From Escherichia coli (GTDB lineage Bacteria > Pseudomonadota > Gammaproteobacteria > Enterobacterales > Enterobacteriaceae), in NCBI RefSeq assembly GCF_051903065.1, contig NZ_CP178438.1: a stretch of DNA of 64,000 bases; one strand, 5' to 3'. Shown one piece after another: positions 26,856 to 31,968 of the stretch. The notes beneath the pieces are model-generated. The model was not told where the DNA came from, ran no database searches, and was given only the letters and a program-made list of their open reading frames with translations. The translations under genes and the position numbers were made by a program. Each line of letters opens with the position of its first letter. Position 1 is the first letter of the stretch.

Positions 26856-27551
26856 GTGATAACGCGTGATTTCTTGATGAATGCCGATTGTAAAACGGCA
26901 TTTGGTGCCATTGAAGAATCACTCTTATGGTCAGCAGAACAACGGGCGGCTTCGCTGGCGGCGACGCTGGCTTGTCGACCTGATGAGGGACCGGTGTGGA
27001 TCTTCGGTTATGGATCGTTGATGTGGAATCCGGCACTGGAGTTTACCGAGTCGTGCACCGGTACACTGGTTGGATGGCATCGTGCGTTTTGCCTGCGCCT
27101 GACCGCCGGGCGCGGGACTGCGCTCCAGCCGGGACGGATGCTTGCACTGAAAGAGGGCGGACGCACCACAGGCGTCGCCTATCGACTGCCAGAAGAGACG
27201 CTGGAGCAGGAACTAACCCTGTTGTGGAAGCGCGAGATGATTACCGGCTGTTATCTGCCAACCTGGTGTCAGCTTGATCTTGATGATGGACGCACAGTAA
27301 ACGCCATTGTGTTTATTATGGACCCGCGACATCCAGAATATGAATCTGACACTCGCGCTCAGGTCATCGCGCCGTTGATTGCGGCGGCGAGCGGTCCGCT
27401 GGGAACCAACGCACAATACCTGTTTTCACTGGAACAGGAGCTTATCAAACTGGGAATGCAGGACGATGGGCTGAATGATTTGCTGGTATCGGTAAAAAAA
27501 CTGCTGGCGGAGAATTTTCCGGATGGTGTGTTACGGCCGGGATTCGCCTGA
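26856..27551 (+). CDS. chaC: glutathione-specific gamma-glutamylcyclotransferase ChaC; GTG start
   Basis: ORF 26820..27551 opens at TTG; the recognised N-terminus (M)ITRDFLMNADCKTAFGA starts at GTG 26856 (231 aa). Confidence 0.88.
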   Translation: MITRDFLMNADCKTAFGAIEESLLWSAEQRAASLAATLACRPDEGPVWIFGYGSLMWNPALEFTESCTGTLVGWHRAFCLRLTAGRGTALQPGRMLALKEGGRTTGVAYRLPEETLEQELTLLWKREMITGCYLPTWCQLDLDDGRTVNAIVFIMDPRHPEYESDTRAQVIAPLIAAASGPLGTNAQYLFSLEQELIKLGMQDDGLNDLLVSVKKLLAENFPDGVLRPGFA

Positions 27552-27594
27552 GTAAACTTCCCTCATCGTGGGGCGTCAGACGCCCCCTTAAACA

Positions 27595-27948
27595 TTAAAA
27601 TGTGAGCACTTTATCGGCTGACAGCGTCCATTGCGCCAGTTCCACAAGAGTACCGATTTCCACCCCATCAATCAGAGGAAGTGTACTAATCCCGCGCCCG
27701 TCGGTACAGGTTTTGCACAATTTCACCGGTACATTCTGAGCGGTAAGGATCTCCAGCATTTGCTGAATGTTGTAGCCTTCCCCTGGTTTTTGCCCGCGCA
27801 ACCCGGCTGTGACCGCATCAGACATCAGGAACAGACGCAGATCCAGATTGCTCTCCTGCTCTCGTAACGCAATGGCCAGCCGCAAGCTGTTAAACAAGGA
27901 TTCGCTCCCGTAAGGTGCGCCATTGGCAACGATCACGATTTTTTGCAT
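27595..27948 (-). CDS. ychN: DsrE/DsrF-like protein YchN
   Basis: 117-aa ORF MQKIVIVANGAPYGSESLFNSLRLAIAL. Confidence 0.93.
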   Translation of the reverse strand: MQKIVIVANGAPYGSESLFNSLRLAIALREQESNLDLRLFLMSDAVTAGLRGQKPGEGYNIQQMLEILTAQNVPVKLCKTCTDGRGISTLPLIDGVEIGTLVELAQWTLSADKVLTF

Positions 27949-27965
27949 TATTTACTCCTGTATTC

Positions 27966-28070: not shown

Positions 28071-29528
<1,458 letters not shown>

Positions 29529-30179
29529 TCAGAAAATGCGCTCCTGATGCACCCATACCGCTGCTTCCACGCGAGACTTGAGCTTCATTTTCTTCAGCAT
29601 GTGCTTGACGTGCACTTTTACTGTGCTTTCGGTGATGTCCAGGCGGCGGGCAATCATCTTGTTCGGCAAACCCTGGGCAATCAGCTTGAGAATATCGCGC
29701 TCGCGTGGGGTTAACTGGTTAACATCGCGCTCAGTCGTGGCACGGTTAGCGCGCAAGCTGGCGGCCAGAACAGGCGTTAATGCTTCGCTTAATACCATTT
29801 CGCCAGCAGCTGCCTGATGCAATGCTTTCAGCAGATCTTCCGGTTCCATATCTTTTAACAGATAGCCATCCGCGCCGCGTTTCAGTGCGGTGACCACATC
29901 TTCTTCATGGTTAGAGACGCTGAATACCACAATGCGCCCTGAGAGGGACTTTTCGCGCAGTTTATCCAGCGTTTCCAGACCGTTCATGCCGGGCATATTG
30001 AGATCTAACAGGATCAGATCGGGATCAAGAGATTCCGCCAGTTCAATACCCTGTTCGCCATTACTCGCTTCGCCAACCACGGTGATATCTGGTGCCATAC
30101 TGATAAGCTGTTTTACGCCAGTTCGCAGCATCGGGTGATCGTCAATCAGCAGGATAGTAGCCGGTTCCTGATTACTCAT
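29529..30179 (-). CDS. narL: nitrate/nitrite response regulator NarL
   Basis: ORF 29529..30293; trimmed to [24 protein letters not shown] (216 aa); receiver plus LuxR-type HTH. Confidence 0.96.
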
Positions 30180-31968
30180 GGGTATCTCCTTGGACGTCTG
30201 TGAAAGTTTTTTCGGGAATAAAGGTGACCACCACTTCGGTGCCACCTGATTCACGACGGCGGACGCGGCAATCGCCTCGTAAACTTTGCGCACGGTCGCG
30301 CATTATTATCATGCCGTAGTGATTGCTGCGGATGGCATTTTCAGGCACGCCGCAGCCGTTATCCTGGACGGTCAGTTTGACCTGATTATCGTTTTGCGCC
30401 ACCGTCACCACGACCTCACTCGCTTGCGAATGTTTGAGGGCGTTACTTAATGCCTCACGGGCAATTTGCAACAAGTGGATTGCCTGATGCGAAGGCACCA
30501 GACGAGGCGGCAATTGATAATCCAGCTTCACCGGGAAGCCAAATTTGGCGCTGTACTCTTCGCAACTCGCCTCCAGCGCCGGACGTAATCCAGGCTCGGT
30601 GAGCTGCAAGCGGAATGTGGTGAGCAATTCACGCAACTGCGCCCAGGATGCATTCAGTTCGTTACGGATCTGACTTAACAGTTCGCGGCTGCTTTCTGGC
30701 AGCGCATCGCCCTGCATCTGTAAACAACTCACCTGCATCTTCATGCAAGAGAGAGATTGGGCAATAGAATCATGCAGTTCGCGCGCAATGGTGGCACGCT
30801 CTTCCATCACGATCAACTGTTGCTGACGTTCCTGATGCCGATCCAGCGCCAGCGTGGCGGTGAGTTGTTCAACCAGGGTATCCACCAGTTGTTGTTGATC
30901 ATGGCTAAGATGACGCCCCTGCGGCAGGGTCGCCAGCAAAATACCGTACTGCGTATGAGAGTCAGCCAGCCGCCACTTCAGGGTCGTGCCGCGATCACCA
31001 ACGGGTAATACGCCGCGCGGGCAGAGCTGGCAGCCTTTATCATCACAAGTCATATCTGGCTGGCAGGTAAACTCCTGATGATTCTCTTCATCATCAGTGT
31101 CATACACCCGCAGTTCGATATCACGTAGCAGGGTTAAATTCTGTAAGCCGTTGAGTACAGGTGACAGGCGTTCACACAGCGGGGCGCGGGAATGCAAACG
31201 GCGGTTAGCCTGCCATAAAAAAGAGAGGATCTGATTTTTATGCTCCAGCCCGGCGGTTTTCTCCTGAACCCGCTGCTCAAGTACGGCATAACTTTCGGCC
31301 AGTTCTGCAGACATATTGTTCAACGCAGTTCCAAGCATCGCCATTTCGTTGCGCCCGCTGATGTTTGCGCGTTGGGTAAAATCGCGATGGCTGACGGCAC
31401 TCGCCATTGCCAGCAGTTGCCGCCACGGTTGTAGCAGTCGCGCCCGCAACCAGATAATAGTGAACACCAGTAAAAGTGCCATAAATACCGCCATTACCCG
31501 ATGGACCAGTACCACTGTCTCAATACGCATTTCCGTGGTGCGGTCAAAACCAGATACCAGCTGATCAAGCCCGGCAACAAACTGGCTGACATCCGCTGAT
31601 ACCGTTTCTCGGTTTTGCGCCCGCATCAGCGCAGGGATCAGTTCATTACGCCAGTAATCTTGTAAACCCTGTAATTGCGCCAGTTGTCCGTCTCGTTCTG
31701 CTGCTCGAGTCAACTCGGCGCTAAATGCCGTTTGTTCCATCTCTTTAATTAAGGGCTTGTCTTTCTCGCTTAATGGCACTGCTGCCAACAGACGGTAACT
31801 TTGCATGCGCAGCGATCCCGCTTTGTTGATCGCATGGGCGCTGCCCTGAACGCCTTGCACCAGCCAGCCAGAAACCGCCATCCCTGCCAGTCCAATAGCA
31901 GTAGAAAGCAACACAATAAGCGCAACCTGATTAACCAGGGTGAGCGGAGAGAGACAACGTTTAAGCAT
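30172..31968 (-). CDS. narX: nitrate/nitrite sensor histidine kinase NarX
   Basis: 598-aa ORF with two N-terminal TM segments, HAMP and HisKA_3/HATPase region; overlaps narL start by 8 nt. Confidence 0.96.

Follow-up and report, generated by a model that had tools for sequence, protein, structure and literature searches.

Spacerless convergent junction of ychO and narL in Escherichia coli and probable Rho-dependent termination of narXL read-through inside ychO

The convergent genes ychO and narL of Escherichia coli meet stop codon to stop codon, and neither has a recognisable intrinsic terminator. Very probably the junction is an ordinary compact tail-to-tail boundary, at which narXL read-through is terminated by Rho inside ychO and the overlap of the transcripts arises as a by-product, with no dedicated regulatory switch. 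Because no non-coding DNA lies between ychO and narL, neither gene has an intergenic terminator of its own; the pair would thus illustrate, in a case that matters little, how Rho stands in for the missing element. The abutment, the absence of an intrinsic terminator, a C-rich tract on the narL strand and the conservation of the layout across species were observed in this analysis, which started from a 64,000-nt stretch of E. coli DNA (the window). Others had established the overlap of coverage, the sensitivity to bicyclomycin and the levels of antisense and double-stranded RNA (dsRNA). The junction was already present in RefSeq annotation, the transcript overlap had been published, the Rho region stood in a published table, and the class of boundary is well described. 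What is added is a link between the Rho region and the C-rich tract, a rate for such junctions in E. coli, and their conservation over 80 species.

Read off the plus strand, the junction is GAA CCG TAA followed directly by TCA GAA AAT GCG, giving a stop-to-stop spacer of 0 nt. An earlier note on this DNA had described the ychO TAA (29526-29528) and the narL stop (29529-29531) as adjoining, and both the coordinates and the description are correct according to the sequence and RefSeq. The features of the locus, in window coordinates, are the following.

28134..29528, plus strand: ychO coding sequence (RefSeq and open reading frame (ORF) list; Pfam IAT_beta PF11924, E 5.8e-103, inverse autotransporter)
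29526..29528, plus strand: ychO stop codon TAA (direct reading)
29529..29531, minus strand: narL stop codon TGA (TCA on the plus strand), abutting the ychO stop (direct reading)
29529..30179, minus strand: narL coding sequence, 216 codons, last gene of the narXL operon (ORF, Pfam Response_reg and GerE, RefSeq)
30172..31968, minus strand: narX coding sequence, with an 8-nt overlap with the narL start (ORF list, RefSeq)
29311..29528, minus strand: putative 3' untranslated extension of narXL by read-through, antisense to approximately the last 73 codons of ychO; the lower bound is the published Rho peak
29351..29448, minus strand: C-rich, G-poor tract (C 34, G 14-15 per 78 nt), candidate rut site
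29529..29626, plus strand: initial ~100 nt of read-through from ychO, antisense to the 3' end of narL, with a modest excess of C over G (ratio ~1.5)

The start of ychO is ambiguous. RefSeq places it at a non-ATG codon at 28134 (464 aa), and an in-frame ATG lies upstream at 28098 (476 aa), which was taken as the start in an APEC study (PMC4787180). The same 0-nt junction is found in the RefSeq records of O157:H7 PV15-279, one K-12 strain, MG1655 (ychO 1273784..1275178, narL 1275179..1275829; window coordinates are MG1655 coordinates minus 1245650) and one 97.8%-identical strain, and the locus was found in 5421 of 5426 complete E. coli genomes. The two genes are adjacent, lie on opposite strands and face each other tail to tail; their coding sequences share no nucleotides in E. 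coli (0 nt in common). The window is 100% identical to O157:H7 PV15-279 over the junction (29230-29830), with a few single-nucleotide differences within approximately 26.6-33.8 kb and with indels that break the register outside it, and it therefore represents another E. coli strain than PV15-279.

A terminator consensus scan returned 8 matches in the region, compared with 4.6 ± 2.4 in shuffled sequences, and only weak hairpin-plus-T matches within 400 nt. Four candidate hairpins were rejected as intrinsic terminators, with energies of -3.3 to -10.6 kcal/mol and z-scores of -0.9, -1.1, -1.9 and +1.9 against shuffles. At the junction itself, RNA folding was no stronger than in shuffles (z -0.35 on the plus strand and +0.18 on the minus strand), the gene ends lack the G+C-rich hairpin and U-run of an intrinsic or bidirectional terminator, and Rfam returned zero RNA families at E <= 1 over 28900-30300. 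There is no spacer and, by consensus scan and folding, no intrinsic terminator close by on either strand, as had been proposed from the layout. Bidirectional intrinsic terminators between convergent genes were reportedly described by Ju, Li and Liu in 2019. They serve the same need as exists at ychO-narL, namely to bring two convergent transcripts to an end within very little DNA, but the E. coli junction is without the hairpin.

A Rho termination region at MG1655 1274961 on the minus strand, classed as antisense to ychO, is listed by Adams et al. 2021 (eLife, PMC7815308, supplementary file 2), with a Rho score of 10.6 and a p value of 5e-14. It corresponds to window position 29311, 218 nt beyond the narL stop, a position that is approximate as it derives from one culture pair and 800-nt windows (PMC7815308). 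Reads upstream and downstream numbered 101/6 without bicyclomycin and 649/408 with it (PMC7815308). The resulting down/up ratios of 0.06 and 0.63 amount to an approximately 17-fold cut, with ~94% of the read-through removed. The Term-seq tables of the same study hold no 3' end for narL or ychO (PMC7815308), and no usable entry for the locus was found in the SMRT-Cappable-seq, Dar and Sorek, and ExcludonFinder supplements.

The C-rich tract lies 80-180 nt beyond the end of narL, a short distance upstream of the Rho region (~29311), and ranks in the 99.3-99.5th percentile of all 78-nt windows on both strands of the 64-kb window. Its best 78-nt stretch (29371-29448, minus strand) contains C 34 and G 14 and lies at the 99.5th percentile. 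On the minus strand, C-rich, G-poor untranslated RNA precedes the termination zone over the length of at least ~70 nt that a Rho-dependent terminator calls for, and no intrinsic terminator acting earlier than Rho was detected by scan, folding or Rfam. A tract followed by a Rho region has the geometry expected of a rut site and its termination zone, and on these sequence grounds the tract is a putative rut site. The Rho-terminated antisense RNA is most simply read as narXL read-through, since the end of the narL mRNA has to fall past 29529 and the interval is otherwise free of reported features; it may instead start at an independent promoter inside narL or ychO.

Peters et al. are said to have described, in 2012, Rho-dependent termination of transcripts antisense to genes. 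The locus resembles these cases and those of Adams et al. 2021, who classed 51.5% of 1078 Rho regions as antisense to genes (PMC7815308), in that, past a C-rich, G-poor untranslated tract, coverage within the opposing gene is lost in a bicyclomycin-sensitive manner. Unlike RNAs from spurious intragenic starts, the ychO antisense RNA is most simply taken as the transcript of a genuine operon, narXL, extended at its 3' end.

A complete narL mRNA extends into ychO coding DNA, because it must contain its stop codon. The earlier note had argued that the convergent transcripts overlap, and they do so by this logic, by a published excludon list (PMC12288877) and by the high level of ychO antisense RNA (PMC7373196). 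ychO-narL is among the 165 convergent excludons of MG1655 in Table 1 of ExcludonFinder (NAR 2025, PMC12288877), whose criterion is an overlap of coverage-defined boundaries in half or more of 58 stranded RNA-seq samples, and on this published evidence the pair falls within the coverage-based definition of a convergent excludon. In the data of Huang et al. (mBio 2020, PMC7373196), ychO appears under its older name ychP and abuts narL there too. The levels below are sense/antisense RPM, with p19-captured dsRNA also in RPM, from one sample each in LB, a medium in which ychO expression is low; the strand column of the data set looks scrambled, and the sense and antisense labels alone were used (PMC7373196).

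ychO (ychP): wild type 8.57/5.46; rnc-14 9.88/10.66; rnc-38 6.45/9.80; p19 dsRNA 40-59
narL: wild type 72.5/1.6; rnc-14 76.9/0.86; rnc-38 27.8/2.1; p19 dsRNA 2.0-2.5

The antisense/sense ratio of ychO is 0.64 in the wild type and 1.1-1.5 in the rnc mutants, with most neighbours at 0.02-0.1; antisense RNA is approximately equal to sense RNA and doubles without RNase III (PMC7373196 data). For narL, antisense RNA amounts to 0.9-2.1 RPM, or ~2% of sense, at a ychO sense level of 6.4-9.9 RPM (PMC7373196 data), and ychO read-through into narL is weak. No promoter-like site was found on the plus strand between 27951 and 32137. A p19 dsRNA hot spot of 21-22 bp lies in the 3' part of narX (window ~30340-30364; U00096.2 1275213-1275237), which implies antisense RNA there.

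In the mechanism proposed for the junction, the ribosome would leave at the narL stop, and the narXL mRNA would go on untranslated and antisense to the last ~220 nt of ychO. This untranslated RNA would expose the C-rich, G-poor tract, at which Rho would act to terminate transcription. On the other strand, ychO transcripts would run some way into narL and then fade. With its 3' end transcribed on both strands, ychO would give rise to some dsRNA, trimmed by RNase III. The overlap would have little regulatory consequence.

The frequency of such junctions was estimated from convergent coding-sequence pairs in four 50-kb annotated stretches (200 kb), comprising the O157 homologue of the window and three MG1655 regions. 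Spacing is 0 nt or less in 6 of the 31 sampled E. coli pairs: ychO-narL itself, ydhK-sodC (0 nt), zapC-ycbX, yccX-tusE and purR-punR (each -4 nt) and sxy-yccS (-38 nt). Two further pairs are spaced at 11 and 16 nt. The spacerless share is approximately one-sixth of convergent pairs (95% interval roughly 6-35%, from the 30 pairs besides ychO-narL), and the ychO-narL junction is ordinary, no statistical outlier. By rough extrapolation from the 31 sampled pairs, E. coli is estimated to have a hundred or so compact convergent junctions. The five other pairs with a spacing of 0 nt or less are all convergent excludons in Table 1 of ExcludonFinder, as is ychO-narL (PMC12288877); no substantial difference separates them from it, and all have in common the absence of intergenic DNA.

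Across Enterobacterales, a scan of species-representative genomes with NarL yielded 80 loci. A ychO homologue is convergent on narL in 62 of the 80 species, and in 54 of these 62 the spacing is between -4 and +11 nt, distributed with the remainder as follows.

Spacing -4 nt: 23 species, in which the stops share CTAA, CTAG or TTAA (Klebsiella, Pluralibacter, Serratia, Mangrovibacter, Rouxiella and others)
Spacing 0 nt: 12 species (E. coli, Salmonella arizonae and diarizonae, Kosakonia, Trabulsiella and others)
Spacing +1 to +11 nt: 19 species
Spacing 21-46 nt: 5 species
Spacing approximately -50 nt: 3 species, in which ychO has lost its usual stop, its ORF continuing into narL

YchO has a conserved Ig-like core (...GQRVSSNEITL.L.EP) and a variable stretch of 12-25 last residues with a loose D-P-R-W/Y-x-L-L-P-E motif, and its ORF always reaches the end of narL. 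From this comparative pattern, the tight, terminator-less junction is an old and stable state of the locus and no peculiarity of E. coli. ychO is absent at 18 of the 80 loci, five of which were folded (Hafnia, Dickeya, Pectobacterium, Acerihabitans and a MAG). In all five, the narL stop is followed at once by strong hairpins (z -2.1 to -9.5), which in Hafnia take the form of a textbook hairpin and U-run; the same folding of the E. coli representative gave no structure (z -0.08).

Two departures from the common layout were observed. In Kluyvera (loci L024, L037 and L039, 4652-4700), where ychO is present, the 43-46-nt spacer contains a near-perfect palindrome (-23 kcal/mol, z -5.2), possibly a terminator that acts in both directions or a repeat acquired by insertion. 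In E. albertii (L006, 4652-4800), ychO has been lost by a clean deletion equivalent to window 28115-29384, spanning from just upstream of the ychO start to 144 nt before its stop. The retained 144 nt by narL hold part of the C-rich tract.

The synonymous sites of the ychO 3' part are biased. In E. coli, G is the last base of 56% of the codons beneath the C-rich tract, compared with 30% gene-wide. Over the last 124 ychO codons (29157-29528), the excess of G-ending over C-ending codons, corrected for the amino-acid-specific codon usage of each species, is +0.11 per codon and is positive in 57 of 58 species, which are not independent of one another. The corrected excess is +0.005 in the 5' part of ychO, and all control windows in narL and narX lie between -0.10 and +0.04. 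An uncorrected test at four-fold sites was discarded, being confounded by amino-acid-specific codon preference: narX showed local skews of the same strength. In E. coli alone, tight convergent pairs (16 genes) and spaced pairs (42 genes) show no difference (excess 0.027 and 0.029, p 0.43), and both groups have a small generic 3'-end G excess. The tract as a conserved, selected feature was rejected, its strength being no higher than elsewhere in antisense ychO; most species have it at a similar position, ~90-100 nt beyond narL, and across species its G excess at third positions ranks no higher than the 80th percentile.

Other readings of the junction are far less probable than a compact boundary with Rho-terminated read-through. 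That one of the two stops is an annotation artefact, not a true protein end, and that a spacer really exists, has next to no likelihood: the last 12-25 residues of YchO do differ in length and sequence between genera, but NarL ends 7 residues past GerE with residues 1-216 at 88-100% identity throughout Enterobacteriaceae, YchO homology extends to residue 460-464 in most species with the tail motif loosely kept, and all RefSeq records agree on both ends. It is very unlikely that each gene is ended by a hairpin lying within the reading frame of the gene it faces, which would make the locus a normal terminated pair with short overlaps. Such hairpins have a precedent, as TransTermHP terminators overlap the neighbour in 146 of the 165 convergent excludons (ExcludonFinder, PMC12288877), and consensus hairpin-plus-T-run matches occur here, for example at 29215-29192 on the minus strand and 29597-29613 on the plus strand. 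However, these matches (-7.8 to -10.6 kcal/mol, z -0.9 to -1.9) are no better than shuffled sequence, their T-tails are poor (AACGUUUUUC, ACUUUUAC), and their number is inside the shuffle expectation. The minus-strand candidate, moreover, is positioned downstream of the Rho region, past the 17-fold drop in coverage.

Excludons were reportedly first defined in Listeria as long antisense UTRs that repress a divergent or convergent neighbour. ychO-narL shares with them the opposite-strand neighbours and overlapping transcripts, and its ychO dsRNA is detectable and RNase III-sensitive, but a reciprocal effect on expression is not seen in the rnc mutants and the overlap is short, because Rho limits it. 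That the overlap is a selected device, in which read-through RNAs pair with the opposing mRNAs and make narL and ychO mutually antagonistic through RNase III cleavage or polymerase collision, is unlikely. It would fit the excludon listing of the pair on at least 50% of 58 RNA-seq samples (PMC12288877), the capture of dsRNA in ychO with a doubling of antisense RNA in rnc mutants, the tight junction retained in 54 of 62 species, the G over C excess at synonymous sites of the ychO 3' third in 57 of 58 species, and the deletion of ychO in E. albertii with the 144 nt adjoining narL kept. The antisense interference between ychO and narXL suggested in the earlier note nevertheless finds no support: narL changes 1.14-fold in rnc-14, which is not significant, ychO sense RNA is unchanged in the rnc mutants (8.6 RPM to 9.9 and 6.4; PMC7373196 data), and Rho cuts the read-through ~17-fold, taking away ~94% of it within a few hundred nucleotides. 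Reciprocal repression of the two genes thus has no support in the available data, which are from rnc mutants in LB. Also against a selected device are the narL antisense level of ~2% of sense, a ychO promoter without a NarL site, and the commonness of tight junctions in E. coli, whose 3' ends carry no special synonymous bias (0.027 vs 0.029, p 0.43); the authors of ExcludonFinder, for their part, could not validate convergent excludons with p19 data (PMC12288877). Quite improbable, too, is that the antisense RNA of the last ~370 nt of ychO is kept C-rich by synonymous-site selection across Enterobacteriaceae, such that the ychO coding sequence doubles as the narXL Rho terminator and possibly as a regulatory 3'UTR, with the overlap coupling nitrate sensing to adhesin expression in conditions not yet sampled. 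Selection for C-rich antisense RNA would leave just such a G excess in the ychO 3' part; this is a hint and not a finding, and such selection would make the layout less of a pure by-product. If the bias were selected, the locus would show, cleanly and on a small scale, how a coding sequence can be held in check by what the opposite-strand gene requires for its termination.

Control of ychO by NarL was considered and rejected, as the sole heptamer, TACTCCT at 27953, coincides on the opposite strand with the Shine-Dalgarno sequence of ychN; no NarL 7-2-7 site was found in the ychN-ychO spacer. ychO is reported to be induced in infected chick lung and spleen (PMC4787180). In the APEC ychO::kan deletion, one homology arm consists of the last 50 nt of narL including the TGA (window 29529-29578; PMC4787180). 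As the arm ends at the narL TGA, this deletion removes the whole narXL 3' untranslated region and the Rho tract. The same holds for any ychO deletion reaching the narL stop, and the phenotypes of such mutants need complementation controls; those of the APEC ychO::kan mutant were complemented in trans (PMC4787180).

A published sigma-54 binding site, IA11 (TCGGTACAGGTTTTGCA), lies within ychN at window ~27710 on the plus strand (coordinate converted from U00096.2) and points toward ychO, 405 nt downstream. The neighbouring convergent pair chaC-ychN has a spacer of 43 nt (window 27551-27595). A second Rho region, antisense to chaC, is located at MG1655 1272857 (window ~27207, minus strand; Rho score 12.3; PMC7815308), and ychN read-through therefore seems to end inside chaC likewise.
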